A stretch of DNA of 64,000 nt. Origin: a candidate division WOR-3 bacterium. Its GTDB lineage: Bacteria; Hydrothermota; Hydrothermia; B15-G9; WFZT01. The position numbers and the translations under genes were made by a program. The stretch is taken from NCBI GenBank assembly GCA_027053075.1, contig JALUEE010000090.1:10392-74391 (forward strand), given 5' to 3'. Each line of letters opens with the position of its first letter. Position 1 is the stretch's first letter. Of the stretch, positions 21,216 through 64,000 are shown piece after piece. The notes beneath the pieces were generated by a model. The model had not been told where the DNA came from and did not search any database. It saw nothing but the letters and a program-made list of their open reading frames with translations.

Positions 21216-21786
21216 CGCTCTGAAGAAGAAAGGGAAATCTTCTTTAAGGCCCTTTGTTAATCTCATGATTGCTCTCAAGGTGTCCCCGGACACTTTGAGT
21301 GTGACGGGATTCCTTATAACTCTAATCATCGGTTATTTCTATGCTCGTGGAGAGCTTGTACTGGGTGGAATTTTTATACTCGTGTCCGGATTGTTTGATG
21401 CCATTGATGGAGAGGTGGCAAGGGCAACAGGGAAAAGTTCAAGAAAAGGGGCACTTCTGGACTCAAGCATAGATAGAGTATCTGAATTCTTTATCTTTGG
21501 CGGCCTTTTGTACTATTTTAGGGCTAACACCTATGCGTTTGTCATCCTCTACCTTTCACTTGTTTTTTCTATACTCGTGAGTTACATGAGAGCTCGTGGC
21601 GAAGGACTTGGGTATTCTGCCCGTTCGGGCTTGATGGATCGGTCTGGAAGGATGATATATTTATTCTTTGCGTCACTTCTTGGGGAGAGGACGTTTATCT
21701 CCCTCATGACTGTATTTATGGTTCTGACATTTGCCACTGTGGTGGAAAGGTGGTTGATTTTGAGAAAAATTCTTTCTGAAAAATAA
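21202..21786 (+). CDS. CDP-alcohol phosphatidyltransferase family protein (candidate phosphatidylinositol-phosphate or DIPP synthase)
   Basis: [12 protein letters not shown]...G...D motif and 5-6 TM helices. Overlaps rsmI by 14 nt and lies 11 nt upstream of the inositol-phosphate synthase gene. Confidence 0.75.
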
Positions 21787-21797
21787 GGAGGTTAGAA

Positions 21798-22895
21798 ATG
21801 GGAGAAATCAGAGTTGCGATTGTTGGTGTTGGTAATTGCGCATCAAGTCTGGTGCAGGGCGTTTACTATTATAGAAATGCCCAGCCCGGTGATTTTATTC
21901 CGGGAATTATGCATGTGATTTTCGGTGGGTATCACATCAATGACATTAAATTCTGTTGCGCGTTCGACATCAACAAGACAAAGGTAGGAAAGGACCTCTC
22001 AGAGGCTATTTTTGCTTACCCCAACAACACATACAAGTTTACAGATGTTCCCAAAATGGGAGTGAAAGTTTACCGCGGAATGACCCATGACGGAATAGGC
22101 AAATATCTTGCTGACATTATCGAGAAGGCACCTGGTCCTACAGACGATGTGGCAAAAATCCTCAAAGAAGAAGGTGCTGACGTCGTAGTGAACTTCCTGC
22201 CTGTGGGCTCAGAAGAAGCCACAAAATGGTATGTTGAGCAGGCAATCCAGGCTGGAGCAGCGTTTGTTAATGGAATTCCGGTGTTTATCGCAAGCTCCGA
22301 ATACTGGAGCAAGAGGTTTGAGGAAGCCGGACTTCCTGTGCTCGGAGACGATATTAAGTCTCAGGTCGGTGCGACCATTGTCCACAGGACACTGGTACAG
22401 CTTTTCCTCGACAGAGGAGTAAAGCTTGAGAGAACCTCTCAGCTCAATGTAGGTGGAAACACTGACTTCCTCAACATGCTCGAGAGGGAAAGACTTCACT
22501 CAAAGAAGATTTCCAAGACTCAGGCTGTAACATCACTCCTACCCTACGACATTGGTGAGGAGAATGTGTACATTGGCCCATCAGACTATGTGGCATGGCT
22601 CAAGGACAGAAAGTGGGCATACATGAGACTTGAAGGTAGGACTTTCGGAGACGTGCCTCTGAATATCGAGCTCAAGCTTGAGGTCTGGGATTCGCCCAAC
22701 TCTGCAGGTGTAATGATAGATGCCATCAGAGCTGCAAAGATTGCAAAGGATAATGGACTTAAGGGTGCAATAATCGAGCCTTCAAGCTACTTCTTCAAGT
22801 CGCCACCGAAGCAGTTCCCTGACTACAAGGCACGTGCACTGCTTGAGGACTGGATAAAGAAGCACACGGAGAAGAAGGAAGAAAAGAAGAAGTAA
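21798..22895 (+). CDS. myo-inositol-1-phosphate synthase (archaeal/bacterial type)
   Basis: [23 protein letters not shown]-terminus and Lys-rich C-terminus; 365 aa. AAGGAGG RBS. Confidence 0.85.
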
Positions 22896-30803: not shown

Positions 30804-32042
30804 ATGCACAGGGAGACGCGGAAAATCTTTGAGAATTTCTCCTGGATGTTACTCGGTCAGGTGGCCGGTCGGGTATTTGGCTTCTTTGCCATCATCTTTC
30901 TTGCCAGGAGACTCGGTAAGAGTGCCTATGGTATGTGGGCTTTTGCATTCGCACTGCTTTCCTACGGCATGCTCCTAACGGATTTCGGACTCAGCACCTA
31001 CGGGTTGATCGAGGTTTCAAAAGACAGAAAAGCACTGAAAACACTCCTCGGAGATATCCTTTCCATCAGGCTTGTAATAGCATTTTTTCTACTCATCATC
31101 ATTGTTCCTTTCTCGCGGATTGTCCCAAAGCTCAGCTCAATGTCAGGCCTCTTATTCTTAACCTTCCTTAATCTCATCCCCTTTGCCCTCTCCTTAGATT
31201 GGGCGTTCAGAGCGCTGGAAGATATGAAGTTCGCTGCACTCTGGACGTTTATTTTTAATCTTTTATTCTTTTTGCTGATAATTTTTGTGGTTAGAAGTCC
31301 GTCAGATATTCTAAAAGTCCCATCCTCAAGATTCTTTTCACTTCTTATTGCTTCTGGTCTTCTTATTTACTTTCTCTGGAAAAGATACCCTGAGCTCTTT
31401 GCCTTCAATGTAAATTTCAGCAGATGGCCTGCCATTATGAAGGTTTCAGTTGTCCTTACGGCTTCCTTTGTCATGATTAAAATTTACTACAACATTGATG
31501 TACTGATGCTTGGATTTTACAGGACAATGAAGGAGGTGGGAGTTTACAGCGCAATTTACAACTTTGTCCTCGCCCTGTCAGTGGTGAGATTTTCGCTTCT
31601 CTATGCTGTGCAGCCTACACTTTCCCGGATTGAGCAGATACCCTGGAAGGATTATTCGAAAAAATTGTGGAAATTCGAGACAGTCTCCATAGCCATTGGG
31701 GTTCTTTTGTATCTTTTTGTTTTCGTTCTGGCAGGACCTATCATAAAGATTTTTTACGGTGGTAAATACACAAGTCCCGAAACAATAAAACTTTTAAGAA
31801 TTCTCATCAACGCCAACCTTATAATGTTCATAAACCTTGTTTTCCCCTCTCTTTTGATCATTGTGAAGAGGGAAATGCTCTACTTCTGGGTTACAACCGC
31901 TGGAGCGACCACAAACTTTTTATTAAATCTGTATCTGATACCGAGGTTTGGGTACTTTGGGGCTGCATACACGACTGTGCTCTCAGAATTTGTTGTATTT
32001 TTGCTGTCTTTTGTTTTATACTACCGCCTGATTAGACCATGA
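30804..32042 (+). CDS. MOP-superfamily (Wzx-like) polysaccharide/lipid-linked oligosaccharide flippase
   Basis: 412 aa with 12-14 TM helices and a Wzx-like N-terminal basic patch. Confidence 0.65.
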   Translation: MHRETRKIFENFSWMLLGQVAGRVFGFFAIIFLARRLGKSAYGMWAFAFALLSYGMLLTDFGLSTYGLIEVSKDRKALKTLLGDILSIRLVIAFFLLIIIVPFSRIVPKLSSMSGLLFLTFLNLIPFALSLDWAFRALEDMKFAALWTFIFNLLFFLLIIFVVRSPSDILKVPSSRFFSLLIASGLLIYFLWKRYPELFAFNVNFSRWPAIMKVSVVLTASFVMIKIYYNIDVLMLGFYRTMKEVGVYSAIYNFVLALSVVRFSLLYAVQPTLSRIEQIPWKDYSKKLWKFETVSIAIGVLLYLFVFVLAGPIIKIFYGGKYTSPETIKLLRILINANLIMFINLVFPSLLIIVKREMLYFWVTTAGATTNFLLNLYLIPRFGYFGAAYTTVLSEFVVFLLSFVLYYRLIRP

Positions 32043-32758
32043 AAGCATTTATTCTTGCAGCGGGAAAGGGTACACGACTTATGCCATTGACAGCCGAGAT
32101 TCCGAAGGCCCTGCTTGAGTTGAAAGAAGGCCTCACTCCACTGGATTTTCAGCTGAATCTACTCACCAAGTATGGGTTTTCCCCGGCGGATATTTTCATT
32201 ATCGGTGGTTATCGTTTTGAAAAACTCAAGAGATACGGTGAAATTGGAGTCAATCTTGTTTTTAATGAGAAATACGACAGTTTGAACAATATCTACACTT
32301 TTCTGCTTGCTTCAAATTTCACAAACGGTGAAGATTTTTTAATTTTGAATGTTGACACAATTTTTGATGAATCATTGCTCGATGAGCTTATAAAAACACC
32401 AGGAAGTGCAATGGTGGTGGATAACGTCAAGATTCTTGGTGATGAGGAAATGAAGGTCAAGATCGCTGATGGAAGAATTGTGGAGGTCAGTAAATTCATA
32501 CCACCTGAGAATGCCCATGGTGAATACATCGGGATTTCAAAATACTCGCACTCAGAGGCCACAGTGATATTCGACAAAATCAGGGATATGCTTGAAAATG
32601 GCGAGGGGCACAGATGGTATGAGGACGCAATAAATCTTGTTCTCGACAGGGTTGAGATATCACCTGTTTTCACAGAAGGTAAAAAGTGGATTGAAATTGA
32701 TACGCCGCAGGATTTAGAAATAGCGCGGGGGCTTGTTCATGATTTACAGAACGATTAA
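32039..32758 (+). CDS. LicC/IPCT-type alcohol-phosphate cytidylyltransferase (nucleotidyltransferase fold)
   Basis: MKAFILAAGKGTRLMPLT..PKALL, LVFNEKYDSLNNIYTFLL and WIEIDTPQDL are nearly colinear with S. pneumoniae LicC. ATGA overlap with the flippase gene. Confidence 0.8.
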   Translation: MKAFILAAGKGTRLMPLTAEIPKALLELKEGLTPLDFQLNLLTKYGFSPADIFIIGGYRFEKLKRYGEIGVNLVFNEKYDSLNNIYTFLLASNFTNGEDFLILNVDTIFDESLLDELIKTPGSAMVVDNVKILGDEEMKVKIADGRIVEVSKFIPPENAHGEYIGISKYSHSEATVIFDKIRDMLENGEGHRWYEDAINLVLDRVEISPVFTEGKKWIEIDTPQDLEIARGLVHDLQND

Positions 32759-33776
32759 CATTCCGGTTTTTCTGGAAATCGGTGAGGGTATCCTTGAAGA
32801 CTTTAATGGAATTTTAAAAAAACATAATCTCTCCTTTTCTCGTCCATTGATTCTCACAGGTGAGAAAAGCTCAAAAGTTCTTGCAGGATTTGATTTTTTT
32901 AATAGATTTGAAAAGCTATTCATCCGGGAAAACGACCTTGAAACTTTGCTCGTGATAAAAAGTGACATTTACGGTAAAGGTTACGATCTGTTACTCGCGT
33001 GCGGAGGTGGAAGGGTAATTGATAGTGGAAAGTTTCTCTCCCTCGAGACTTCCCTGCCACTTGTTGCTATTCCAACAATCTTATCGAGCGACAGCGTGTC
33101 ATCGCCAATAAGTATTCTTAAAGATAACCATGGAACGAGGAGCATGGGGACAGTTATGCCAATGGGGGTTTTAATTGATGTACAGATAATCAGGACTTCG
33201 CCCGAGATTTACCTAAAAGCGGGATTGGGTGACCTTATGTCCAATCTGTCATCTGCTTATGACTGGGAGCTTGCTTACAAACGAGGTTTTGAAAGAATCG
33301 ATAACTTCTCGAGGATGCTCGCCCTTTTGCCCGCTCAGCGGATTCTTCTCAAAACCGATGGGTACAAGGGGTTAAAAGACGAGGAGCTACTTGCTGATCT
33401 TGCCGAAGGACTGGTGCTCAGCGGAATTTCAATGGCTATAGCCGGGAGTTCAAGGCCTGCCAGTGGAAGTGAGCACAATATCAGCCATAGCCTTGACAGG
33501 ATACTCGGGCAGCAAAAGAAACTTCACGGGCTGCAGGTAGGACTTGCTACCGTTCTTACCCTAATTCTTCAGGGGAATAGAGAGCAGGCCGATGTGCTTT
33601 CGCAATTGTATAAGAAGACTGGCTTCCCTTTGAATTTAAAGGAGCTTGATATCTCCTGTGAAGATTTCGAGAAGGCCCTTGAAATAGCACCAGGCCTGAG
33701 AGACAGATATACTGTCCTTAATGAAATCCCTATTGAGGAGCTGAAAGAAGTCGCAAGAGCCAGACTCTGCAAGTAA
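32733..33776 (+). CDS. egsA: sn-glycerol-1-phosphate dehydrogenase (EgsA/AraM family)
   Basis: GGGRVIDSGK, PTILSSDSVSSP, GLGDLMSNLSSAYDWELAYK and SSRPASGSEHNISHSLD match the archaeal G1PDH motif set; 347 aa. Overlaps the cytidylyltransferase gene by 26 nt. Confidence 0.8.
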   Translation: MFMIYRTINIPVFLEIGEGILEDFNGILKKHNLSFSRPLILTGEKSSKVLAGFDFFNRFEKLFIRENDLETLLVIKSDIYGKGYDLLLACGGGRVIDSGKFLSLETSLPLVAIPTILSSDSVSSPISILKDNHGTRSMGTVMPMGVLIDVQIIRTSPEIYLKAGLGDLMSNLSSAYDWELAYKRGFERIDNFSRMLALLPAQRILLKTDGYKGLKDEELLADLAEGLVLSGISMAIAGSSRPASGSEHNISHSLDRILGQQKKLHGLQVGLATVLTLILQGNREQADVLSQLYKKTGFPLNLKELDISCEDFEKALEIAPGLRDRYTVLNEIPIEELKEVARARLCK

Positions 33777-39258: not shown

Positions 39259-42009
39259 ATGCAATCAATGTTATTGGCATTTTTATTGTTTTCGCAGCAG
39301 CAGGTGACGATACAGCAGATTCAAGGTAACGGTCCAACGTCCCCCTATGTTGGTCAAAGAGTGATAACCACTGGAGTAGTAACTGGTGTCTACCAGCATG
39401 GATTTTTTATAGAGGACACCAGTGCAGGTCCCTGGAGTGGAATATGGGTCCATTCATACGCAAGTGTTGCAAGGGGTGACTTTATCAGGCTTTCTGGGGT
39501 TGTGGTGGAATACTACGATTTAACCGAGCTTGATAGCACGGAGAATGTTTCAGTGCTGGCTCATGGATATGTCATCCCCCCGGAGACCCTTTCAACCCAT
39601 GATGTTGCCAATGAGATGTGGGAAAGTGTACTGGTGACGGTTCTTGGGGCCGTATGTGATTCTCTTCCCAACCAGTACGGTGAATGGTGGGTGAATGATG
39701 GAAGTGGCCCAATAATGGTTGACGATATGGGATACGCCGCATCTCCAACCCTCGGTCACTGTTACAATATAACCGGGCCGGTTTACTATTCCTATAGAAA
39801 TTATAAAATTGAGCCGAGGGACGCCAACGATGTTCAGGAAGTTGTCTGTCCCATTAGATTCACAAATGTTTACTTTAACCCAACTTTGCCAGATCCAGAC
39901 GAGGATGTTTCTGTGGTTGCAGTGGTGAGTTCTCATACCCAGATTTATCAGGACTCGTTGTTTTATGCAGTAAACGGGACTTCTTCCTGGAATTCTGTGC
40001 CTCACGACAGTGTTGTCGGCTCAAACTACTATTACACTATTCCTCATCAGCCACTCGGTAGTATAGTCCATTTCTATATCACGCTCTGGAGGCAGGACTT
40101 AAGCTTTGAAACATCCGATACTCTCATGTATCTCGTGCCTGATTTCTCGAAAACCATTCCGCTTGGTTTTGTCCATGTCCTCGATAGAAACGGAGTTTCT
40201 ATTCTTGAAGGAAGAACCATTAAATTTACCGGGAAATTAACCACGGGAGGCGAACTTGGCCTCACATACTTCTTGCAGGATACCTCAGGTGGAATAGCCA
40301 TCTATAATCCGGGAGTCTCTCTGAATAGAGGCGACAGTGTTGTGGGAATGGGCACTGTGGAGTCTTATTACGGTCTTGCGGAATTGAAAAATGTTTCCTT
40401 CAGCTTGATTGAGCATGGAAACGAAATACCTCCACAGGTGGTTACCTGCAGGGAGCTTTCGGAGAATGGAGAGAAGTATGAAGGTAAACTTTTGAGAATA
40501 AAGGGTGTAACCTCGACTGCTACCTTCTTCCCGGTGGATGGAACCATCACTGTGACTGATTCAACAGGTACTTTTACCCTTTTCATCGACAGAGATACTG
40601 ACCTTGGCTCGCTTCCTGTGCCTGAGGGAGAGTTTGATGTTATTGGTGTTCTTTCCCAGCACGATGCAACACCTCCTTATACTGAAGGCTATCAGCTCGT
40701 CCCAAGGTCCCACGAGGATGTGATATTCCAGGGTAATGGAAGTGGTGAGGTCAATATTATCCCGCCCATCGCTTTTCCCGGTGACACGACGTCACTGCAT
40801 TTTGAAGGTAGCAATTTACCTGGAAATGTCAGGGTAGTTATCCCAACAGGGCTCGAATGGAGCTTTGATACTACTGATGTCCAGGTATCAGGTGTTGACT
40901 CATTTAGTATTGATACGACCTCGCGTTTTGTTACTTTTTACAGCACGGACACACTGATTTCTTTTGACCTTGAAAATGTATATGTGCCCGATACAACAAG
41001 AGATTACATCTTCATGGTGAAGACCTCTTCTGGCACCAGTTTCAGGAGAATAATGAAATATCCGGTGCTCTACACAGTGACTCCGCTTAAGGATGTTCAG
41101 GGTGACGATTACACCTCTCCCATGCTTGGAGATACCGTTCGGATCGGAGGCTGGGTCATTGGCCCATCAGACGTGTTCAGCCCATCAGGTAAGACAACAT
41201 TCTGGCTCTATGATGGGACAGACGGTGTGGAAGCCTTTTCTTACAGCACAACACCACCTGAAAGGGTGGGAGATTTTATCGTGCTCACAGGAGTCGTCAA
41301 TGAGTACAATGGACTTACGCAGGTAACATTTTCATCTGATGGATTTACAAAGGTTTTAAGTGTATCTCCTGATTCCCCATTCCTGCCTACGCCTGATACT
41401 CTTGGAGAATCTGAGGGACTCAACGAATCCCTTGAAGGTCATCTTGTCGTGGTTCGTGGAAATGTTGCCACTGATCCGTCTCGTGGTGGCAGTGGTTTTA
41501 ATCTGACAATAATGAACGGCCTTACACCTGTTGATCTGCGAATTTTAGATGCAACCGGAATTGATGTCACACAGTTTCACAAAGGACAGGTCCTGGAAGT
41601 TAGAGGAATTGTTTCCCAGTACGACCAGACCCCTCCATTTACTTCTGGTTACCAGCTTATGCCTGTGAAACCCGGCGATATAAGGATTTTTCAGGGTCAG
41701 ACGACAACAGCGGTTTCCATGCAGCTCAACAGGTCGGTGGGAATTATAGATGATGGTAAGACTTTCACAATAACCGTGAAATCACCTTCAACTGCTGAGA
41801 ATACTATTACAATCTACGACCTCGAAGGCCGGAAGATCAGGACACTGATTGAGCGACACGTGGGGCCTGTGGTGGTAAACTGGAATCTACTTGACGATTA
41901 CGGCCAGACGGTTAAATTAGGAATGTATATCATTCAGCTAAAGTCAATTGTAGGTGGAAAGACAAAAGTTTTAAATAAACTTGTGCTTGTGACGAGGAGG
42001 TTTAAGTAA
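39259..42009 (+). CDS. 916-aa secreted protein of tandem ExeM/NucH-type OB-fold domains with a C-terminal T9SS/FlgD-Ig-like sorting domain
   Basis: At least four copies of the IQG..x..SP..G..V...GVVT...YQL.P module (aa 14-95, 310-400, 610-690, 720-800). The C-terminus ITIYDLEGRKIRTL...GMYIIQL is typical of Por-secretion CTDs. GGAGG RBS. Confidence 0.7.
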   Translation: MQSMLLAFLLFSQQQVTIQQIQGNGPTSPYVGQRVITTGVVTGVYQHGFFIEDTSAGPWSGIWVHSYASVARGDFIRLSGVVVEYYDLTELDSTENVSVLAHGYVIPPETLSTHDVANEMWESVLVTVLGAVCDSLPNQYGEWWVNDGSGPIMVDDMGYAASPTLGHCYNITGPVYYSYRNYKIEPRDANDVQEVVCPIRFTNVYFNPTLPDPDEDVSVVAVVSSHTQIYQDSLFYAVNGTSSWNSVPHDSVVGSNYYYTIPHQPLGSIVHFYITLWRQDLSFETSDTLMYLVPDFSKTIPLGFVHVLDRNGVSILEGRTIKFTGKLTTGGELGLTYFLQDTSGGIAIYNPGVSLNRGDSVVGMGTVESYYGLAELKNVSFSLIEHGNEIPPQVVTCRELSENGEKYEGKLLRIKGVTSTATFFPVDGTITVTDSTGTFTLFIDRDTDLGSLPVPEGEFDVIGVLSQHDATPPYTEGYQLVPRSHEDVIFQGNGSGEVNIIPPIAFPGDTTSLHFEGSNLPGNVRVVIPTGLEWSFDTTDVQVSGVDSFSIDTTSRFVTFYSTDTLISFDLENVYVPDTTRDYIFMVKTSSGTSFRRIMKYPVLYTVTPLKDVQGDDYTSPMLGDTVRIGGWVIGPSDVFSPSGKTTFWLYDGTDGVEAFSYSTTPPERVGDFIVLTGVVNEYNGLTQVTFSSDGFTKVLSVSPDSPFLPTPDTLGESEGLNESLEGHLVVVRGNVATDPSRGGSGFNLTIMNGLTPVDLRILDATGIDVTQFHKGQVLEVRGIVSQYDQTPPFTSGYQLMPVKPGDIRIFQGQTTTAVSMQLNRSVGIIDDGKTFTITVKSPSTAENTITIYDLEGRKIRTLIERHVGPVVVNWNLLDDYGQTVKLGMYIIQLKSIVGGKTKVLNKLVLVTRRFK

Positions 42010-45397: not shown

Positions 45398-47068
45398 ATG
45401 GATCGTCCGTGGCTGAAATTCTACGATGAAGATGTACCACGGAGTATTGATTATCCCAGAATGCCCATCTATGGCATTCTCGATGGTTCAGCAGAAAAGT
45501 TCCCCTCCAAAACGGCTTCCATATTCTACGGTAAAAAGCTCACTTACAAAGAGCTAAAAGAATTATCCGATAGATTTGCAAATTCCCTCAAAAAACTTGT
45601 CATTGGAAAAGGAGACAAAGTAGCACTTCTCCTGCCAAACTTCCCGGGTTACGTTATTGCCTACTTTGGTGCTTTAAAATCCGGCGCTGTCGTTGTCCCA
45701 CTGAATCCCCTTTACACAGAGAGTGAGCTTGAGTTTCACTTTAACGATTCCAGTGCGGAGACCGTTGTTACAATCCCTATGTTTGTTGAAAAGGCAGCCG
45801 CACTAACGAAAAAGACACCACTCAAGCGTGTCATCGTTTCCTACATTGCTGACTTTTTACCATTTCCCCTCAGTTTTGTTCAGAAACTCAGAGAAAATCC
45901 ATATGTGAAGCGGGCAAAGAAGACCATTTCAGGTGAGCTTCTCAATATGAAAGACATGATTTCGAGCCCTGCCACTGGTTTTAAACCTGCACAGGTGAAT
46001 CCCGATGAGCTTGGAATTCTCATTTATTCGGGAGGTACAACAGGTGTGGCAAAGGGGATAATGCTCTCTCACTACGCAGTTGTGGCAAATGCCCACATGA
46101 TCAAAGCCTGGGGTCACCTTGATGAAAACGAGAGGATGCTGGCAGTGCTGCCGTTTTTTCACGGCTACGGCATGAATGTAACCATGAACGCAGCACTACT
46201 CTCGGGCATGTCCATTGTAATGCTGCCCAGATTCAGCGCGCGCGAGATGGCAAAGACCATTGATAAATACAAACCCACGCAGACCGCAGTTGTTCCCACC
46301 ATCCTCGTTGCACTTTCCGCTGTCAAAAACGTGGAAAAGTATGATTTTTCAAGCCTCAAGGCCATTTGGGTTGGAGCTGCCCCGCTGACTGCTGCCATCA
46401 AAGAGAATTTTGAGAAGAAAACCGGTGGACGTGCCATAGAGGGTTATGGCCTCACCGAGGCAGTCACTGCAATAATGGCCAATCCCATGAAGGGAAAACA
46501 CAAGGTAGGAAGTATCGGACTCCCATTCCCTGATGTTGATGCGAAAATCGTTTCACTTGATGGAACAAAAGACCTTCCATCCGGTGAGGTGGGAGAGATT
46601 GCACTAAAAACCCCGACCGTGATGCTCGGTTACTACAATAGACCCGAGGAAACTGCAAAAACCATTAAAGACGGCTGGCTTCTCACTGGGGATATTGGTT
46701 TTATGGACGAAGAGGGTTATTTTTATATAACCGACAGGAAAAAGGACCTCATCATTGTTGGTGGATTTAACGTTTTCCCGAGGGAAATTGACGAGTTGAT
46801 TTATAAGCATCCGAAGGTGAAAGAGGGAATAACTGTTGGCGTGCCTGATGAATTTAAGGGTGAGAAAATAAAAGTCTTTATCGTGCTCAAAGAGGGTGTT
46901 ACAGCCACGGCAGAAGAGTTTATTGAATATTTCAAAAAGCACCTTGCCCCCTACAAAGTGCCAAGTGAGGTAGAATTCAGGAAAGAGCTTCCAAAGAGTG
47001 CAATTGGAAAGATTCTTCGAAGGGTACTAAGAGAGGAGGAAATCAAAAAGCGTGGTAAAAATACCTAA
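45398..47068 (+). CDS. AMP-forming acyl-CoA ligase (FadD/long-chain-type)
   Basis: YSGGTTGVAKG AMP-binding P-loop, GYGLTE, TGDIGFMDEEGYFYITDRKKDLI and PKSAIGKILRR. Confidence 0.85.
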   Translation: MDRPWLKFYDEDVPRSIDYPRMPIYGILDGSAEKFPSKTASIFYGKKLTYKELKELSDRFANSLKKLVIGKGDKVALLLPNFPGYVIAYFGALKSGAVVVPLNPLYTESELEFHFNDSSAETVVTIPMFVEKAAALTKKTPLKRVIVSYIADFLPFPLSFVQKLRENPYVKRAKKTISGELLNMKDMISSPATGFKPAQVNPDELGILIYSGGTTGVAKGIMLSHYAVVANAHMIKAWGHLDENERMLAVLPFFHGYGMNVTMNAALLSGMSIVMLPRFSAREMAKTIDKYKPTQTAVVPTILVALSAVKNVEKYDFSSLKAIWVGAAPLTAAIKENFEKKTGGRAIEGYGLTEAVTAIMANPMKGKHKVGSIGLPFPDVDAKIVSLDGTKDLPSGEVGEIALKTPTVMLGYYNRPEETAKTIKDGWLLTGDIGFMDEEGYFYITDRKKDLIIVGGFNVFPREIDELIYKHPKVKEGITVGVPDEFKGEKIKVFIVLKEGVTATAEEFIEYFKKHLAPYKVPSEVEFRKELPKSAIGKILRRVLREEEIKKRGKNT

Positions 47069-48173
47069 GAGGCACGAGGTTTGCAGGAAATTTAAGGAGC
47101 AGGGGGGAAAGGTTGCGGCAGTATTGCCCATCCATTATCCGAGAGCACTTTTGAGGGCTTTTGATATACTACCTGTGGAAGTGTGGGGACCTCCTCAAGT
47201 GGACGTAAGTTATGGAGGTGCACACCTGCAGCCCTATGTTTGCTCGATAGTTCACAATGCCCTTTCGTTTCTCAAAACCGGTGGGCTGGATGAAACCGAC
47301 ATTATCATTGTTCCGCACACGTGTGACTCGCTTCAGGGATTTGGAAGCATTCTGCTTGATTTTGTTAAGCCCAGACAGCCGGTTTTTCCAATTTATTTGC
47401 CACGCGGAAAAAGGTCGGAGGATGTTGAATTTCTGGTGAATGAGTTTAAATCTCTATACAGGGGGCTCGAAAAAATTACCGGCAAAAGCCCGATGGATGA
47501 TGAGATGCTTAAGAGAATCGAAATTGAAGAGGAGGCCGATGCAAAGCTAAAAGAGCTTTATGAGATCAGGGGTGAATTTTCCTTTGAGTCAGGAAAGACC
47601 AAAAGCAGGTCAAGCAAGGGAGAAGCCCTTTCAACCTACGATTTTTACAGGGTTGTGCGGGCAAGAGAATTTTTACCAGCCGAGAAATTTATTGAGATTG
47701 CTGACGAGGTGATTTCGGAATATTCATTTGTAAGAGATGGTGTGCCTGTGATACTTTCGGGGATAGTTCCAGAGCCCATGGAGGTTTTGAATGCCATTGA
47801 AGAAGCCGGGGGATTTGTCGTTGTAGATGACCTTGCCTGCTGTGGCAGACGTCTTTATGGACGTGGAAAATCGAGTGAGCCATTGAAAAGGATGGCCGAA
47901 AGGATTATTTTCGGGCCACCTGATGTGACACGAGGGAATTTGATTGAGGAGAGGTTTGAACATTTGAAGTATCTTGCTGAGGTCACAGGGGCACGCGGTA
48001 TCATTTTCTATACTGTAAAGTTCTGCGAGCCCGAGTTATTTGATTTACCTGACCTGAAGAATATGCTGAAGAGTGCGGGGGTACCTTCGGTGCAGGTTGA
48101 GATCGATATCGGTGACCCATTACCTCATCAGACTATCACGAGATTGACTGCGTTTTTAGAGGTGCTGGCATGA
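47052..48173 (+). CDS. 2-hydroxyacyl-CoA dehydratase / benzoyl-CoA reductase family subunit (HgdB/BcrB-like), GTG start
   Basis: [26 protein letters not shown] and [11 protein letters not shown] patterns of the HgdAB/BcrBC fold. Overlaps the ligase by 17 nt. Confidence 0.7.
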
Positions 48174-49492
48174 GTTTGAAAGACCATCTCAAATATTACT
48201 GGAATGTGAAGCTTGTTGGGAGTGCCTATCTCAGGTGGCAGAGGTGGCAGGCAGAGCGGAAGCCTCGAATTCCGCGAAATTGGAGAACGAATATAATCGC
48301 ACCACCGCTGAAGATCAGTGCCCGCACAAAAGAGCTGATCTCAAGGCATTATCTTGAGGGAAGGTATGCGAATGGGCATAAGCCTGTTGCGTGGGTTACA
48401 TCTGGTGGGCCGGTCGAAATCCTTCAGGCTCTTGGCTTTTATGTTTTGTATCCTGAAAATCACGGCGCGCTCTGTGGAGCGCGCCGTTACGCTCTTGAAC
48501 TCTCAGAAGAGGCCGAAAACTACGGTTTCTCCCAGGATATTTGCTCATACGCGAGGACGGATATAGGGAGCATGCTCTCGGGGAAGACACCGATTGGAAG
48601 ACTTCCAAAGCCTGATCTTCTGCTTGCATGCACAAATATTTGTCAGACAGTGCTTTTCTGGTATCGAGTGCTTGCAAAGCATTTTAACGTTCCGATTATC
48701 CTGATTGACACACCATTCGTTTACAAAGATGCACCGGAGCACGCTATTGAATACGTGAAAAAGCAGCTCGAGGCTTCGATTCCGGTGGCCCAGAGGGTTG
48801 CAAAGAAAAAGCTTAGCTTTAAAAAATTAAAGGAAGTTGTGAGGCTCAGCCGTGAGGCTTCTGAGCTGTGGCTCGAGATTATGTATAGGGGAAAGGCAAA
48901 GCCTGCCCCGATCTCGGTTTTTGACCAGTTCATACACATGGCTCCAATTGTGGAGATGCGGGGTAAACCCGAAACGGTGGATTTTTACGCAGCAATGCTC
49001 AAAGAGGTTGATGAAAGAATCAAAAAGGGTATCGGAGCAGTGAAGAATGAGAGGAAAAGGCTGCTCTGGGATAATTTGCCCATCTGGTATAAACTGAGAT
49101 TCCTTGCGGAGTATCTTGGTGAGCATGGGATTTCGGTGGTTGCTTCTACTTATACCATGGCATGGGGTGAGCTTGCCCCATTGATTGACCCGGAAAGACC
49201 CATTGAATCAATGGCAAAGACTTATATTTACCCAATTTTGAATCGTGGAACAGGCTACAAGTTGCAAAAGATGAGGGACATGGTTGAGGAATTTGACCTT
49301 GATGGTGCAATTTTGCATTCTGACCGCTCGTGTAAGCCTTATTCTATCGGACAGGTGGATCAGAGGAACAGATTGATCAGTGAATACGGGATACCTGCTC
49401 TTATTTTAGAGGCTGATCATAATGATCCCCGGGCATTTGCAGATGAGCAGGTAAAAGCAAGACTTGATTCATTTATAGAGATGCTGGAATGA
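48170..49492 (+). CDS. 2-hydroxyacyl-CoA dehydratase family subunit (HgdA/BcrC-like)
   Basis: [32 protein letters not shown] and [10 protein letters not shown] Cys ligand context. ATGA overlap upstream. Confidence 0.7.
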
Positions 49493-50265
49493 TTAAAGCA
49501 ATAGGAATTGATGTAGGTTCAACAACGGCAAAGATTGTAGGAGTTAACGAGGGTGGGGACTTTGTGTGGAGCTATATTGAACCTGCCGACCCAAGGGTAG
49601 AGGACCAGGTGGAGAGGTTTCTCGAGAAGGTCAGGGAAGTGGCAGGTTCCATTGAAGGAATTCCCATAGTGGCAACAGGTTATGGAAGAAACCTTGTCCA
49701 TCAGGCAACGAAGAAGGTGACAGAAATCACCTGCCATGCGCGCGGGGTTTTCAAGCAGCTTGGCCATGGTGGAACGCTTGTGGATATTGGTGGACAGGAC
49801 AGTAAGGTGATTGTAATAGGGCCGCATGGAGAGGTGGTGGATTTCACCATGAACGACAAGTGCGCCGCAGGGACAGGAAGATTTCTTGAAAATACTGCCG
49901 GAAGGCTCAGGGTGAAGCTCGAAGAGATGGGGAGTGTGGCCCTCTCTGCTCCTGAAGAGGTGAAAATTTCCAGTACGTGTACGGTTTTTGCTGAATCTGA
50001 GATTATTTCAATGATTGCTCATGGTGTGAGGGTTGAGCCCATTTTAAAGGGGCTTCACAGGTCCCTTGTGAAGCGAATTGTTGCCATGATTAGAAGTGTG
50101 GGGCTGGTGCCTCCATTGATGCTGTCCGGGGGAGTAGTAAAAAACCCGGCAATAAGGAAGATGATTGAGGAAGAAACGGGAGAGAAGGTAATTTTACCCG
50201 AGCACCCGCAGTTCATGGGCGCCTACGGCGCCGCCTTGATAGGATTGAAGTTGGGGAAAGGGTAG
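49489..50265 (+). CDS. CoA-substrate-specific enzyme activase (BadF/BadG/BcrA/BcrD/HgdC ATPase)
   Basis: [14 protein letters not shown]-terminal ASKHA motif and [12 protein letters not shown]; ATGA overlap. Confidence 0.85.
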
Positions 50266-58921: not shown

Positions 58922-60610
58922 TCAAGAAGACGGGAACTCAAATCCCCTTTTGAAAACTTCTATGCAGGCATCCACAACGTCCCTGTCGTATAGCGTCCCC
59001 CTGTTCTTTTTGATCTCATCGAGGGCAACCGAAATGCCAAGAGCAGGCCTGTATGGTCTGTGGGAGCTTATAGCCTCGACTACATCGGCTACGGCAATTA
59101 TCCTTGCCTCAATAAGAATGTCTCCGTCTTTCAGCCCCTGAGGATACCCTGATCCATCCAACCTCTCATGGTGCTGAAGAACGATAGTAGCTACTGGCCA
59201 GGGGAATTCTATCTTTTTAAGAATTTGATAGCCGGTAACTGGATGATGTTTAACGAGCATGTATTCAACCTCGGTGAGTCGAGTGGGCTTTGTCAGTATA
59301 TCTGATGGGATAGCAATTTTGCCAATATCATGTAATAATCCAGCGATTCTCAAGGCTTTAATTCTGTTCTCAAGGCCCATTTCTTTTGCAATCTCAACAG
59401 CGAGCTGGGTTACCCTCCTCTGGTGTCCTGCAGTGTAGAGGTCTCTTACCTCCACAGCTGAGCTTAATGCCATCACAGTGGAATCAAAGAGTTTCTCCAT
59501 CTTCCTCAGATTCTCGAGTAGCGAAGCTTCAAGATTTTTCAGCTCAGTTATGTCCTGTAGACTACCTTCAATATACACTTTCCCGTGCTCGTCTTTCCTT
59601 ATTCTTGAAGTATCCTTTAGCCAGATTATTCTGCCGTCCTTTCGCCTCATCCTGAATTCTCGCTCCACACTCCCTTTCTTTAATAACTCTTTAAGCCATT
59701 TTTCTCTTTCAGCTTTGTCAACATAAAAGTCCGAGGCCTTCCTGACTTTTAGTTCTTCCTGTGAGTAACCAAGTATCAAGGATGACTGTGGATTAAAGTT
59801 GACAATATCCCCTTCAGGTGTTGTAGTATAGAGACCTACAGGCACATGCTCAAAGAGAGACCTGTATTTTGATTCGGACTTCTCAAGCTTCTTATAGGCC
59901 TTTCTTATCTCCGTGATATCACGTACAACCAGGACGACTCCTCGATAACGCATGTTTAGCATGATAGGTGACTGTTTTACATGAAAATATCTTGTTTTAC
60001 CTTCTATTCTGAGCTCAACCTCGTACTCTGCAATTTTCCCCTTTTGGTTCTCTTCAAGTGCCTTATAAAATCTGTTAGAGAATTTCTCTGGCAGAATGTC
60101 TTCAGGTTTCTTACCCACAAGCGTTTGGGTTTTGAGAGAACCAAATCCGTAGGGATTATTGGCAAATATAACCCTTCCATGTTCGTTCATAAGAAAAACA
60201 AAATCACCGATGGAATTTAAGAAAATGTGCATAATGGCTTCGATTTCTTTTTCAGTAAATCCAAGTCCATAGACCATCTCATTAACATATCCAGTGACTA
60301 TATGGTCTTCCTTATCCCTAGTTTTGCTCGTAACTACATTAATAAAAATCTCTTCTCCATTTTTCCTTAATGCTTTGAAAGTGCAGCTCTGAAAACCAGG
60401 CTTTTGCATCTCTGTAAGCACTGCGTTTTTCCACGATGGATGTATGAGAGATTCAAAGCCAACATTTAGCAACTCTTCCTTTGAATATCCGAAGATTCTT
60501 GAGAAAGAGGAGCTAACATAGGTGAACCTCTCGTTCTTGACCTGGAATATTCCGTACCCTGACTCATCAGCGAGGTGTACGAGAATATCCGTTATTTCTC
60601 CATTACTCAT
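58922..60610 (-). CDS. three-PAS HD-GYP phosphodiesterase
   Basis: LLHDIGKIAIP...HHERLDGSGYPQGL is the HD-GYP motif. Three PAS-like blocks precede it. Confidence 0.8.
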   Translation of the reverse strand: MSNGEITDILVHLADESGYGIFQVKNERFTYVSSSFSRIFGYSKEELLNVGFESLIHPSWKNAVLTEMQKPGFQSCTFKALRKNGEEIFINVVTSKTRDKEDHIVTGYVNEMVYGLGFTEKEIEAIMHIFLNSIGDFVFLMNEHGRVIFANNPYGFGSLKTQTLVGKKPEDILPEKFSNRFYKALEENQKGKIAEYEVELRIEGKTRYFHVKQSPIMLNMRYRGVVLVVRDITEIRKAYKKLEKSESKYRSLFEHVPVGLYTTTPEGDIVNFNPQSSLILGYSQEELKVRKASDFYVDKAEREKWLKELLKKGSVEREFRMRRKDGRIIWLKDTSRIRKDEHGKVYIEGSLQDITELKNLEASLLENLRKMEKLFDSTVMALSSAVEVRDLYTAGHQRRVTQLAVEIAKEMGLENRIKALRIAGLLHDIGKIAIPSDILTKPTRLTEVEYMLVKHHPVTGYQILKKIEFPWPVATIVLQHHERLDGSGYPQGLKDGDILIEARIIAVADVVEAISSHRPYRPALGISVALDEIKKNRGTLYDRDVVDACIEVFKRGFEFPSS

Positions 60611-60799: not shown

Positions 60800-61972
60800 T
60801 TAGGTCAATTCAGACATTATAGATATGTATTTACTGGCTACATCTTCTGGAGCGAATTCCCTTGCGTGAGCGAAGGCGTTTCTGGACATTTTCCAGAGTT
60901 CACTCTCAGAGAGGCCCAGAATGGCCTTTTTTAAACCATCTTGGCTGTCGATATCAAAAACAATACCTGTTTCTTTATGCTTTACGAGCTCTGGAAGGCC
61001 GCCTCTATTCGAGGCTATAACAGGTATTCCGTATGCATTTGCCTCGTGAACAACGGTTGGAGAGGAGTCGTTACACAGGGACGGTACCACGAGCACGTCA
61101 ATCTGGGAGTAAAAACTTGTGGCATCAACCCATCCGAGGAATTTAATATTTCCCCTTTTGACAAGTGAGTTAAGAAATTTCCCGTATTCTGACGTATAAG
61201 GACTTCCGGCGATGAGCAACGGGGCGTCAATTTCGTTGAAGGTTTTAATTGCTACTTCAATACCTTTAGATGGGTGGAGTTTTCCGATAAATCCAAAGGT
61301 GGGATTCTTGAAGTCTTTCTCGATGTGCTCGGGGAAGGGTACTATAACCGGGTTGTAAATGACAGAGAATGGAGTGTCTGTGAAAAATCCGAGATTCTGG
61401 TGTCTTGTGATGATATATCTACTTGTACCCACTACAAAATCGATATAATTGATAAACTTTTTCTTCAATGCAGCGTATATACTGCATGTCGTGCAAATCT
61501 TTTCACAGTTCTTCATGTTTTTAAACATGGTGGCTTTAACACACATGAAACTGTGATCATGGAGGGTATGGACAACCTTGAAACTTCTAAACTCCTTCAG
61601 CACTCCAAAAGACAGTTCGCTTAAGTTGTGGGTGTGGATGATATCGGGTTTTTCAGACGATAATATATCTTTTACCTTCCCCCGGACAAGGGGGTTGTTT
61701 ACGTTGATAAGATGCCAAAGAGGGCGAATAACGGGAGATTTGGACGAGGAATCTTTTCCCCGGTAAATATTTCTGTTGTGAAGTCTGTAAACCCTTATCC
61801 CTTCTATTTCCTCAATTGAGTCTCTGGCTCCGGAAGTAATGACAAAAACCTGATGTCCTAGTTTACGGTAAGTCTCGGTAAGCTTTTTCACTACCATCTC
61901 CGCGCCACCAATTGATTCCGGATAGTAGTATGAATTTACAACCGCAATCTTAAATTTTTTTGAAGAATTCAT
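60800..61972 (-). CDS. GT4-family glycosyltransferase
   Basis: KIAVVNSYYYPESIGGAEMVV N-terminus and the EX7E-type C-terminal region (GLPELV...ETG). Confidence 0.8.
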   Translation of the reverse strand: MNSSKKFKIAVVNSYYYPESIGGAEMVVKKLTETYRKLGHQVFVITSGARDSIEEIEGIRVYRLHNRNIYRGKDSSSKSPVIRPLWHLINVNNPLVRGKVKDILSSEKPDIIHTHNLSELSFGVLKEFRSFKVVHTLHDHSFMCVKATMFKNMKNCEKICTTCSIYAALKKKFINYIDFVVGTSRYIITRHQNLGFFTDTPFSVIYNPVIVPFPEHIEKDFKNPTFGFIGKLHPSKGIEVAIKTFNEIDAPLLIAGSPYTSEYGKFLNSLVKRGNIKFLGWVDATSFYSQIDVLVVPSLCNDSSPTVVHEANAYGIPVIASNRGGLPELVKHKETGIVFDIDSQDGLKKAILGLSESELWKMSRNAFAHAREFAPEDVASKYISIMSELT

Positions 61973-63170
61973 ATATTCTCCTCGCTGCCTCGCCATCCCG
62001 AAATTTATAAATACGTGTCACAAACCTATCTCGTGCCTCTTTAAAAGGGTCATTGCCCGATAGATGGTCTTCAATGTGTTTAATTAGCGAAGGAAAGTCA
62101 CGTGCTTTCTCGCCAGGCGTGAAATCTTCATATTTGAAATACATGTCACGGTTTTTTGAAAGATATTCCTCGAGGTCATATGGGTAAAAGATAACAGGCC
62201 TGTTAAGGATCAGGAAATCGAGGTATATCGAAGAATAATCGGTGATTAAAACGTCAATTAGTAGAAGAAGTGGATAGAAATCAAATGTCTGCTCCACGAA
62301 GACTATATTTGAATAATTCCTATCCGGTTTAAAAGGTGTGTAGGGATGGGGTTTGATGATCAAATAAGCTCCATAATTTTTGAACACCCGGTTTAGCTGG
62401 TCAAGGTCAAGAAAATCAATAGGATTCTCTCCGCTCTCTCTAAAAGTCGGAAAATATGCAAACAATTTTTTCCCTGAAGTTTTAAGCTCCTTCAGCCTTT
62501 TGTAAATTTCTTCTGAGGAGCCGATAAACATCCCGCGGATTTTCTTAAAGAGTACATCGTTTCGTGGATATCCAGTAATAATCACGTGATCTTCAGGGAT
62601 ACCGAGTCCACTTGAAAGACCTTTTACGAAGATTTCTGAGGTGGCTATTGTGTAATCCCATTTCTCAAAGGTCCAGGGTCTGAAGATTTTTAAGATCAGC
62701 CTTTTTATAGGGTTTGGCGTATTCCTCATGTCATTTTTGTCATCATTCGCAATCCTCTTAAGTGGCAGACCATGCCAGAGATTGACCTTAATGCTTCCAC
62801 CTGCAAACCAGTAGTTGAGGTCCTGAGTGCAATAATCAAAAAAAGTAAATTTTGCACGCAGAAGCTTTAGAATCCCTTTCAAAGAGTTGGAATGATAGAC
62901 CTGAAAGCCAAGAGCCCTTAGTTTTTTTAAAACATCTTTGTTTTCGGTTATCCAGATCGTTTCTATATCCTTTCTCTCCTGTAATTCAAGAAAAAGGTAT
63001 TTGGGATTTCCGGAAAATGTTTGTGCTCCAAAACTTCCAAATGCCCATAAATTCTGGTCTTTTGGAATGAACTTACTGAATATGCGAAAAAAATGCATGA
63101 AAGGCCTGAGAAGTATGCGAATTTTCTTCTCCCTGAAGATTTTCTCGAAAAACGAAGCTATTATGGACAT
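61950..63170 (-). CDS. CDP-glycerol glycerophosphotransferase (TagB/TagF family)
   Basis: GNPKYLFLEL...WHGLPLKRI...TDYSSIYLDF matches the TagF catalytic-domain pattern; 406 aa. Confidence 0.75.
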   Translation of the reverse strand: MSIIASFFEKIFREKKIRILLRPFMHFFRIFSKFIPKDQNLWAFGSFGAQTFSGNPKYLFLELQERKDIETIWITENKDVLKKLRALGFQVYHSNSLKGILKLLRAKFTFFDYCTQDLNYWFAGGSIKVNLWHGLPLKRIANDDKNDMRNTPNPIKRLILKIFRPWTFEKWDYTIATSEIFVKGLSSGLGIPEDHVIITGYPRNDVLFKKIRGMFIGSSEEIYKRLKELKTSGKKLFAYFPTFRESGENPIDFLDLDQLNRVFKNYGAYLIIKPHPYTPFKPDRNYSNIVFVEQTFDFYPLLLLIDVLITDYSSIYLDFLILNRPVIFYPYDLEEYLSKNRDMYFKYEDFTPGEKARDFPSLIKHIEDHLSGNDPFKEARDRFVTRIYKFRDGEAARRIYEFFKKI

Positions 63171-63380
63171 GGTGTTTTATTTAAAAGGAATTGGGGAAGT
63201 TATTCAATGGCAGATTTAGAGTCGGTGAGGTGAGATGAAAGATTAAAAAAGTTGGGAGCTCTCATCATATCACCCACTAATTCTTGGATTAGAAGGAATT
63301 CATGTTCCCGCGGGCTCACAACCTGTTGACATTACTAATTTGAGGCAGGGAAAATAAAGTAAACCCGAAGGAGACTCTTT

Positions 63381-64000
63381 ATGAGAGATATTGCCTTTGA
63401 AATTTCGGAATATATCAGCTCAGTAAAATTCGAGGATATCCCTGAAGAAACTCTGCACAATGTAAAGCTTTTCATTTTTGACACCATAGGAGTTGGAATT
63501 GCTGGACATAGAGCGCCAGGTGTCAGGCCTCTCTATGAGCTTCTCTCTCAACTCGGTGGTAGTAGAGATTCTACCGTTTTAAAGTTTCGTACCCGGCTTC
63601 CTGCCCCTTCAGCTACACTCCTAAACAGTACCATGATACATGCTTATGATTTTGACGATACCTTCGATGAGGGAGCACTTCATACCTACGTCTCTATACT
63701 CCCTTCCGTGCTATCACTTGCCGAATGGTCAGGAAACACTGGAGGTAAAGAAATTCTCACGGCTACCACGCTGGGTGTGGACCTTATCGTCAGGCTTTCT
63801 CTTGGAATAAAGACACCACTCTCGTGGATAAGAACAGCCACACTTGGCTCCTTTGGCGCAGCTGCCGCTTCCGCAAAAATCCTTGGATTCGGGAAAGATA
63901 AGACTCACAGGGCACTCGGTGTTGTTTATAGCATGACTTCCGGCAATGCTCAGACGCTTATTGACGGCGGGCTCACCAAAAGGATGCAGCCAGGATTCAG
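63381..64000 (+). CDS. MmgE/PrpD-family protein (2-methylcitrate dehydratase-like), 3'-truncated by the window end
   Basis: MRDIAFEISEYISSVKFEDIPEETLHNVKLFIFDTIGVGIAG is the MmgE/PrpD N-terminus. AAGGAG RBS at 63368. Confidence 0.7.
   Translation, partial: MRDIAFEISEYISSVKFEDIPEETLHNVKLFIFDTIGVGIAGHRAPGVRPLYELLSQLGGSRDSTVLKFRTRLPAPSATLLNSTMIHAYDFDDTFDEGALHTYVSILPSVLSLAEWSGNTGGKEILTATTLGVDLIVRLSLGIKTPLSWIRTATLGSFGAAAASAKILGFGKDKTHRALGVVYSMTSGNAQTLIDGGLTKRMQPGF

Follow-up and report, generated by a model that had tools for sequence, protein, structure and literature searches.

The enzymes closest to the one described here are TagF, TagB, TarF, and TarL of Gram-positive bacteria, and TagF-like capsule polymerases are also established in diderms (PMC5974469, PMC8262930). 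We analysed a 64-kb stretch of DNA from a candidate division WOR-3 bacterium (assembly GCA_027053075.1, contig JALUEE010000090.1), hereafter the window, to which the analysis of this genome was confined. It encodes a TagF-like protein beside a family 4 glycosyltransferase (GT4) and, 28 kb away, a trio of overlapping genes for a Wzx-like flippase, a LicC-like nucleotidyltransferase (NT), and an EgsA-like dehydrogenase. Judged from protein families and gene order, the best explanation of the whole is probably a split donor-acceptor pathway in which the trio supplies the TagF-like enzyme.

With the Gram-positive enzymes, the window protein shares the Glyphos_transf domain (PF04464), the fold, both catalytic histidines, and the TDYSS motif. 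Unlike them, it comes from a diderm host, has no TagD, TagO/TagA, or TagGH genes nearby, and is paired with a GT4 enzyme and, as we infer, with a Wzx flippase and a donor that does not come from TagD. The capsule polymerases Cps3D and Cps7D of A. pleuropneumoniae and Bcs3 of H. influenzae b resemble the window pair in combining a diderm TagF-like module with glycosyltransferase activity and in using CDP-glycerol, and Cps7D can use CDP-1-glycerol in vitro (PMC8262930). These polymerases are large multidomain proteins of group 2 capsule loci that have ABC export and a TagD-family glycerol-phosphate cytidylyltransferase (GCT; Cps3B, Cps7B), whereas the window encodes separate small proteins, a transporter of the Wzx family, and a LicC-like candidate cytidylyltransferase.

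In the logic of the proposed pathway, its nearest analogues are the pneumococcal gtp1-3/wchX genes and, similarly, TarIJ. As in the window-type cassettes described below, the pneumococcal donor module and transferase are encoded together, in that case in the capsule locus, and gtp1-3 and the transferase gene wchX have been linked to glycerol-2-phosphate (Bentley 2006, PMC1391919). Pneumococcal Gtp3 phosphorylates glycerol at C2 and the window-type cassette has no such gene, while the window dehydrogenase resembles sn-glycerol-1-phosphate (G1P) dehydrogenases that act on dihydroxyacetone phosphate (DHAP). The gtp locus is reportedly Wzx/Wzy-dependent. CDP-ribitol synthesis follows a comparable plan, with a ketose-phosphate reductase and a cytidylyltransferase feeding a TagF-family transferase. 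TarJ belongs to the medium-chain dehydrogenases and TarI resembles IspD, whereas the window enzymes are of the Fe-ADH_2 and LicC-like types.

Two further systems bear on the donor side. Archaeal EgsA and B. subtilis AraM, which supply G1P for ether lipids (PMC4244643), are like the window dehydrogenase in belonging to the Fe-ADH_2 family and in carrying active-site blocks as in solved G1P dehydrogenases, but the window clade is genomically tied to NT genes and to TagF-like or CDP-alcohol transferases. The GCT and DIPPS route of Archaeoglobus fulgidus and Aquifex aeolicus likewise has a CDP-glycerol donor, with glycerol-1-phosphate as the preferred substrate of the archaeal GCT activity according to Rodrigues 2017, as relayed in PMC8262930. 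Archaeoglobus members of the window NT family adjoin a gene for a CDP-alcohol phosphatidyltransferase (CDP-OH_P_transf). That route leads to a soluble solute through a CDP-alcohol phosphatidyltransferase, whereas the proposed consumer in the window is TagF-like and accompanied by a flippase.

The TagF-family enzyme and its paired glycosyltransferase

The acceptor side of the proposed pathway consists of a two-gene unit on the minus strand and the intergenic region upstream of it (aa, amino acids; nt, nucleotides):

61950..63170, minus strand: TagF-family CDP-polyol (probably CDP-glycerol) phosphotransferase, 406 aa, assigned from PF04464, fold, and active site
60800..61972, minus strand: GT4 (GT-B) glycosyltransferase, 390 aa (398 aa from ATG 61996), with Glyco_transf_4 and Glycos_transf_1 domains
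63171..63380, no strand: divergent intergenic region of 210 nt between the TagF-like gene and an MmgE/PrpD gene, read from the sequence

The TagF-like protein, transcribed first in the unit, is a single catalytic module. It matches PF04464 end to end (E-value (E) 8.6e-70; 236 bits against a Pfam gathering score of 22.1 bits), with residues 33-402 covering profile positions 7-364 of 367. Alignment to Staphylococcus epidermidis TagF (3l7i, E 8.7e-25) places H133 at TagF H444 and H275 at chain position 584 of 3l7i, the histidine that is mutated in 3l7m. The 120 top-ranked homologues show no variation at H133, K138, K273, H275, D311, or S313 and hardly any at Y312 and S314 (kept in 119 of 120). 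The catalytic histidine pair is intact, as is the TDYSS motif that binds the nucleotide. The initial annotation had described the TagF signature as a His/Asp pair and had named its loss as a finding that would undo its reading; the actual signature is two histidines, H133 and H275, and both are kept. As an aside on the reference structures, the title of 3l7m reads H548A, while the deposited 3l7i and 3l7m sequences differ at chain position 584 (RMHYL vs RMAYL), which looks like a digit transposition in the title.

The predicted structure agrees with these assignments. An AlphaFold (AF2) model built from 45 sequences had a mean predicted local distance difference test score (pLDDT) of 94.7, and its best structural match was TagF 3l7j (TM-score 0.72, E 6e-25), followed by TarL, Cps3D, and Bcs3. 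Matches to 8qoy and 8a0c of the capsule polymerase group fell at E 1e-17 to 1e-18, and UDP-GlcNAc 2-epimerases were far weaker matches that ranked after the TagF group. Family membership, as given in the initial annotation, is thus directly established, and so are an intact active site and fold. Against the NCBIfam equivalog models, the best score was 138 bits for TarF (cut-off 550), followed by 96 for TarL (cut-off 1000) and 54 for TarB (cut-off 500). By these scores, the protein belongs to the family, yet is an orthologue of no named enzyme (TarF, TarB, or TarL). Its predicted activity is most likely CDP-glycerol-dependent glycerophosphotransfer. The GC content of the gene, 38.3%, is mildly atypical against a window mean of 43.8% (standard deviation 2.4%, 1-kb windows), which could reflect a more recent acquisition.

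As described in the initial annotation, the GT4 gene is co-directional with the TagF-like gene and overlaps it. Both lie on the minus strand, a correction to that annotation, so transcription reaches the TagF-like gene first. The GT4 protein has a Glyco_transf_4 domain in its N-terminal half (E 1.7e-18) and Glycos_transf_1 in its C-terminal half (E 6.1e-25). Its start overlaps the stop of the TagF-like gene by 47 nt if the first ATG (61996) is used and by 23 nt from ATG 61972. The latter is more likely the true start, because it is preceded by AGGAG and because public gene calls use it (390 aa). With this overlap, the two genes would form a translationally coupled unit. Searches against NCBIfam and PDB sequences returned generic GT4 matches that reached no subfamily cut-off and did not narrow the sugar or acceptor of the enzyme; the solved chains matched the C-terminal half alone.

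The pair recurs in related genomes. TagF homologues of relatives, with 58-62% identity, sit in quite different neighbourhoods, and the TagF-GT4 pair is found at 56-62% identity with differing flanks in loci L005/L006 and L007, where the overlapping GT4 behind the TagF homologue is 56-58% identical to that of the window. At a third locus, L004, a co-directional overlapping open reading frame (ORF) behind the TagF homologue is cut by the contig end. Conservation of the pair is thus directly observed, and we regard it as a conserved, self-contained unit. No cytidylyltransferase, exporter, or initiating transferase lies beside the pair in the L004, L005/L006, or L007 contexts, so a CDP-activated donor must come from elsewhere in the genome. 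At L004 (positions 9035-9991, GCA_054022695.1), 10 nt separate the TagF homologue from an upstream, co-directional gene for a trans-polyprenyl diphosphate synthase, which hints at a polyprenyl-based lipid acceptor.

The initial annotation had placed an MmgE/PrpD gene downstream of the pair and read it as a pointer to a polysaccharide. This gene begins at 63381, lies on the plus strand, and is transcribed away from the pair; on public contigs of the same sequence it is complete at 450 aa, with MmgE_PrpD_N and MmgE_PrpD_C domains. Past it, on public contigs that carry an identical TagF-like protein, lie an FAD_binding_2/Succ_DH_flav_C gene and pilin-like, Por_Secre_tail, and Msr genes, and no further polysaccharide genes were found on these contigs beyond the window end, where the initial annotation had suggested looking for them. 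We rejected MmgE/PrpD as a part of the system, as it is divergent, paired with a flavoprotein gene, and not kept among the varying flanks of the pair in relatives. Both promoters presumably lie within 63171-63380; in a scan of 60.4-63.5 kb, sigma-70 promoter and terminator sites were no commoner than in shuffled sequence. On the 3' side of the GT4 gene are genes for a PAS/HD-GYP protein, a GHL10 hydrolase-like protein, and a cation efflux protein. The PAS/HD-GYP protein (58922-60610, minus strand) has a sole homologue in a related genome (L009:11814-13829; 50% identity over the C-terminal 327 aa), and that homologue adjoins the trio. This placement, seen in two genomes, could go back to one ancestral locus or reflect a shared regulator.

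The candidate donor module

The initial annotation had also pointed to a unit at 30.8-33.8 kb. Its three genes are present, all on the plus strand and overlapping, 28 kb from the TagF-GT4 pair:

30804..32042, plus strand: Wzx-like (Polysacc_synt, MOP-type) flippase, first gene of the trio (PF01943, E 1.3e-28)
32039..32758, plus strand: LicC/IPCT-like NT, proposed CTP:glycerol-phosphate cytidylyltransferase (NTP_transferase, PF00483; NTP_transf_3, PF12804)
32733..33776, plus strand: EgsA-like Fe-ADH_2 dehydrogenase, proposed to reduce DHAP to G1P (PF13685, E 2.1e-20)

The N-terminus of the NT, MKAFILAAGKGTRL, carries the LAAGxGxRL signature, of which L6, A7, A8, G9, and R13 are invariant in 25 homologues. 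Its nearest solved relative is LicC 1jyk, a CTP:phosphocholine cytidylyltransferase (E 1.5e-13), and the inositol-1-phosphate cytidylyltransferase (IPCT) 2xme matches as well; both of these closest relatives make CDP-alcohols. The trio is kept in relatives at L008, L009/L010, and L015. One genome, GCA_054022695.1, holds both the trio (L010) and the TagF homologue (L004), on separate contigs.

The product of the dehydrogenase would determine the stereochemistry of the donor, and the evidence on it is mixed. The protein aligns over nearly its whole length with the M. jannaschii G1P dehydrogenase 4rgq (E 1.1e-43) and also with the Pyrobaculum enzyme 5fb3 (E 7.5e-35), while glycerol dehydrogenases match at E 1e-16 or weaker. 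It shares with 4rgq the active-site blocks GGGRxID, AGxGDxxSN..DWxLAYK, and SSRPASGSEH. No kinase gene occurs in any conserved cassette, so the product of the dehydrogenase should already carry a phosphate. Bacterial loci also exist in which an NT-TagF pair has no dehydrogenase (L096, L099), which fits a dehydrogenase needed only where the pool lacks the required glycerol phosphate.

Several findings count against G1P as the product. Against the archaeal EgsA equivalog model NF002022, the window dehydrogenase scored 226 bits, below the cut-off of 413, and so fails as a canonical EgsA. All seven NT-adjacent homologues tested were also below it (225-266 bits), including one on the archaeal-looking contig L011, as were the three closest named homologues tested (256-263 bits). 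These three, all from Thermococcales, are proteins of the 'iron-containing alcohol dehydrogenase family' from Thermococcus sp. 9N3 (two copies) and Pyrococcus kukulkanii. By sequence, then, the window enzyme belongs to an NT-linked paralog clade apart from housekeeping EgsA, and the clade is found also in archaea. Archaea presumably have EgsA already, so the paralog might make another polyol phosphate there, and its archaeal occurrence is left unexplained by a G1P model. The label egsA given in the initial annotation is thus too specific, because the score lies under the equivalog cut-off; the likeness to solved G1P dehydrogenases stands, and we use the name EgsA-like. A search of genome contigs with the dehydrogenase returned one locus.

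These scores, the archaeal occurrence of the clade, and the two copies in Thermococcus sp. 9N3, from a group that already makes G1P, would suit a scheme in which the two units of the window cooperate but handle a polyol other than G1P, for instance glycerol on the way to CDP-2-glycerol in the style of Gtp1-3, or another polyol phosphate. There is a precedent, as pneumococcal Gtp1 is reportedly a dihydroxyacetone reductase that acts with the LicC-like Gtp2. We consider this scheme unlikely. A Gtp3-like kinase or phosphotransferase gene is missing from the conserved cassette at every locus, and the M. jannaschii G1P dehydrogenase has matching SSRPASGSEH, GGGRxID, and DWxLAYK blocks. The NT-TagF loci without a dehydrogenase also fit a dehydrogenase that supplies a glycerol phosphate bacteria otherwise lack. 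We therefore lean, by a modest degree, towards G1P as the product, and the sn-1 configuration of the donor would follow from this comparison of sequences.

Linkage of donor and acceptor genes in other genomes

An alignment of the 25 NT homologues was used to scan a metagenome collection, which yielded 80 loci. Their ORFs were searched with profiles and with probes made from the window proteins, and the following genes were found near the NT:

EgsA-like dehydrogenase: 38 of 80 loci, within 300 nt in 33
CDP-OH_P_transf: 36 of 80 loci, within 300 nt in 31
Wzx-like flippase: 10 of 80 loci, within 300 nt in 6
TagF-like gene: 7 of 80 loci, within 300 nt in 2

At four loci (L026, L027, L031, and L097), the genes for Wzx, NT, dehydrogenase, and a TagF-like protein are contiguous and co-directional, in that order. 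A fifth, L032, has the contiguous order TagF, NT, dehydrogenase, and the PF04464 match of its TagF-like ORF has an E-value of 2.5e-57. Over nearly full length, the TagF-like proteins encoded at L026, L027, and L031 share 36-37% identity with that of the window, which puts them among its better hits. Clusters with multiple glycosyltransferase genes, of the polysaccharide type, enclose the cassette in L026, L031, and L097: in L026, it is followed by Wzy_C and two GT4 genes, and in L031, by a GT2 and two GT4 genes. The flanks of L031 held no domain-of-life markers.

The same association was seen when starting from TagF-like proteins. In all four contexts looked up outside the WOR-3 clade, the TagF-like gene is immediately preceded by an NT gene of the window's family:

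L097 (P0028): Wzx, NT, dehydrogenase, TagF, GT2, second TagF, GT4 genes, RmlABCD, Bac_transf
L096 (P0010): Asn_synthase, NT, TagF, Wzy (O-antigen polymerase), GT4, with Bac_transf further on
L099 (P0011): Asn_synthase, NT, TagF, GT4, the TagF and GT4 genes overlapping as in the window
L098 (P0019, Halomarina ordinaria): overlapping NT-TagF pair

The NTs of these loci are 31-44% identical to the window NT (E 5e-23 to 9e-65), and the first TagF-like protein of L097 is 38% identical to the window's. When the NT sequences were clustered, the window clade fell beside a cluster that holds the NTs of Wzx-NT-dehydrogenase-TagF cassettes, and neighbour types were intermixed across the family. The repeated linkage of NT and dehydrogenase genes to TagF-like genes is thus directly established. 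Because these gene neighbourhoods recur, they support the view that the NT family supplies a CDP-alcohol donor to this TagF-like subfamily and that the dehydrogenase supplies the NT. The split pathway put forward in the initial annotation is accordingly well supported by gene order in L026, L027, L031, L032, and L096-L099. The annotation as a whole is borne out in part, and its argument from MmgE/PrpD drops out.

Several side observations concern these loci. At both L096 (7906-11251) and L099 (3373-6875), an Asn_synthase-family gene lies directly before the NT-TagF pair, along with polysaccharide-cluster genes; the donor at these two loci may be a modified polyol rather than plain CDP-glycerol. 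The TagF-like protein of Halomarina ordinaria (L098:7241-9203, GCA_030553305.1) is haloarchaeal and 37% identical to the window's, and many top matches of the window protein are haloarchaeal as well, which suggests that teichoic-acid-type glycerophosphotransfer occurs in archaea.

If the two units of the window work together, they would be the scattered parts of a cassette whose genes stand side by side in other genomes. The EgsA-like dehydrogenase would reduce DHAP, probably to G1P, and the LicC-like NT would join this product to CTP to give CDP-glycerol, as the sn-1 enantiomer if the first step is right. The TagF-like enzyme would then move a polyol phosphate, most likely glycerol phosphate, from the CDP donor to a sugar hydroxyl on an acceptor that the GT4 enzyme would make or extend on a membrane lipid carrier. 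Finally, the Wzx-like flippase would carry the lipid-linked glycerol-phosphate unit across the inner membrane to its outer face. We infer each enzyme's substrate, the stereochemistry, the acceptor, and the number of units added from families and gene context. One or a few glycerol phosphates per repeat unit or glycolipid are more likely than a long poly(glycerol phosphate), because the partner is Wzx rather than a TagGH/KpsMT ABC exporter and because Wzy genes occur in L026 and L096. A small glycolipid is as possible an acceptor as a polysaccharide repeat unit.

The tight coupling of the TagF-like and GT4 genes, which is conserved, could also be read as a split polymerase of the Cps3D/Cps7D type, in which the two enzymes alternate to build a long, teichoic-acid-like poly(glycosyl-glycerol-phosphate). 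Cps3D joins a TagF-like domain to a glycosyltransferase domain (PMC5974469, PMC8262930), and the window model matches the TagF-like domain of Cps3D 8qoy at E 2.4e-18. However, a KpsMT/TagGH-type ABC exporter is missing from both the window and the conserved contexts, the linked transporter belongs to the Wzx family, and the Wzy_C of L026 and the Wzy of L096 suggest that repeat units are polymerised after flipping. The 406-aa window protein also lacks the extra domains of capsule polymerases. On this evidence, we think a split polymerase decidedly unlikely.

Other observations weigh against the split pathway. The two units of the window are 28 kb apart on opposite strands and have no direct link in this genome. 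Of the parts of a Wzx/Wzy locus, the window has the Wzx-like flippase only, and among its ORFs of at least 150 aa there is no Wzy/Wzy_C, no initiating phosphoglycosyltransferase (Bac_transf or WecA-type), and no ligase. With 64 kb of the genome in view, other parts of it could encode a canonical TagD or a further TagF-like acceptor enzyme. In 36 of the 80 loci, the NT is partnered with CDP-OH_P_transf and not with a TagF-like gene, so the NT family serves more than one kind of acceptor enzyme.

Much of this would be expected if the TagF-like enzyme drew CDP-sn-3-glycerol or CDP-ribitol from a TagD/GCT or TarIJ system encoded outside the window and if the trio served another, unseen transferase: the units are unlinked both here and in GCA_054022695.1, the 64 kb examined leave room for such genes, and the NT family often partners CDP-OH_P_transf rather than TagF-like enzymes. 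However, no TagD-like ORF turned up either in the window or beside any TagF homologue examined. With a hand-entered B. subtilis TagD sequence as the probe, phmmer gave no hit among the window ORFs (E up to 10) and none in 94 loci (E up to 1e-3). A LicC-like NT stands directly upstream in every outside TagF context that was looked up, in four loci the trio and a TagF-like gene follow one another in the same direction, and the window offers the trio no other acceptor candidate save an AIP/PIP-synthase-like gene. An outside donor of this kind therefore seems improbable to us.

That gene and its neighbour are the following:

21202-21786, plus strand: CDP-alcohol phosphatidyltransferase (CDP-OH_P_transf), 194 aa, like archaetidylinositol-phosphate (AIP) and phosphatidylinositol-phosphate (PIP) synthases
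21798-22895, plus strand: myo-inositol-1-phosphate synthase (MIPS), directly after the CDP-OH_P_transf gene

Adjacent to each other and about 10 kb from the NT, they could in principle use CDP-glycerol for a glycerophosphoinositol-type solute, as in Aquifex and Archaeoglobus, with the TagF-like enzyme unrelated. Synthesis of glycerophosphoinositol does use CDP-glycerol (PMC8262930), and the 36 loci in which the NT partners CDP-OH_P_transf include an Archaeoglobus-type contig. Yet the window CDP-OH_P_transf is nearest to AIP synthase (152 bits; cut-off 180) and PIP synthase (121 bits), and it is distant from the NT-adjacent enzymes (E 1e-6 to 1e-18). A soluble solute needs no flippase, yet a Wzx-like protein is the conserved first member of the trio. 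We consider this solute pathway very unlikely, and the enzyme at 21202, being AIP/PIP-synthase-like, an unlikely consumer of CDP-glycerol. The preferred reading thus stays a supply from the trio to the TagF-like enzyme.

The CDP-OH_P_transf loci are of interest in their own right. They include L017, L020, L025, L030, L033-L038, and L041-L047, and 15 of the 36 also carry the EgsA-like dehydrogenase; on the Archaeoglobus-type contig (L095), the NT is beside a small CDP-OH_P_transf gene. This combination looks like a pathway from CDP-glycerol to a glycerophospho-alcohol of the diglycerol phosphate or glycerophosphoinositol type.

Host lineage and implications

WOR-3 is a diderm lineage, and we read the host as a thermophilic member of it. 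Another candidate division WOR-3 contig, of 9.8 kb, carries flippase, NT, dehydrogenase, and radical-SAM genes in the window order, with a dehydrogenase 95% identical to the window's. An Lnt homologue is encoded in the window, and relatives have TonB-dependent receptor and Por_Secre_tail genes. At L009/L010 (positions 1-2805), a relative that has the trio also has a gene for reverse gyrase (with zf_Rg, DEAD, Toprim, and Topoisom_bac domains), which indicates a hyperthermophilic lineage.

Other genes of the window lie outside the proposed pathway. The genes at 21202-22895 are inositol phospholipid genes in a WOR-3 bacterium. A UbiA gene (5432-6346) was considered as a digeranylgeranylglyceryl phosphate (DGGGP) synthase that would use G1P for archaeal-type lipids and was rejected, as it is MenA-like. 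A 166-aa ORF at 18418-18918 (minus strand) matches the NMD3 family (PF04981, E 1.2e-9); NMD3 is a eukaryotic and archaeal ribosome-export factor, and a bacterial match is unexpected. Directly after the Lnt homologue, a 916-aa ORF (39259-42009, plus strand) has a weak DUF5689 match (E 1.9e-8). Genes at 45398-50265 (plus strand) encode an AMP-binding acyl-CoA ligase, two HGD-D subunits, and a BcrAD/BadFG-type activator ATPase, a set like that of 2-hydroxyacyl-CoA dehydratases.

The significance of the locus depends on what is assumed about G1P in bacteria. Most bacteria probably lack free G1P, a likely absence of CDP-1-glycerol goes with this, and G1P in bacterial surface polymers has been ascribed to phosphatidylglycerol or other non-nucleotide donors (PMC8262930). 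The gene for the G1P-preferring GCT activity of A. fulgidus was described as unidentified in the same source (PMC8262930). In the literature searched, no paper named both a G1P dehydrogenase and a glycerophosphotransferase, and CDP-1-glycerol was mentioned in just three.

Against this background, we tentatively propose, as a possibility that falls short of likely, a TagD-independent bacterial route to sn-1 CDP-glycerol in which an EgsA-like dehydrogenase and a LicC-like NT feed a TagF-like enzyme in Wzx pathways, with the WOR-3 window as a dispersed version and with the same NT family acting as the G1P-preferring GCT of archaea (Archaeoglobus and others). The TagF-GT4 pair is itself of a known family, and the combined donor-acceptor system is where the variation lies. 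If the dehydrogenase makes something else, what remains is a TagF-family member with an unusual, not unprecedented, donor module. The NT family offers a concrete gene candidate for the archaeal GCT activity of A. fulgidus. If the proposal is true, the cassette, of which WOR-3 carries a split copy, would overturn the assumed absence of CDP-1-glycerol in bacteria, would predict a new class of G1P-containing glycans, and would provide thermostable enzymes for making enantiopure CDP-1-glycerol.

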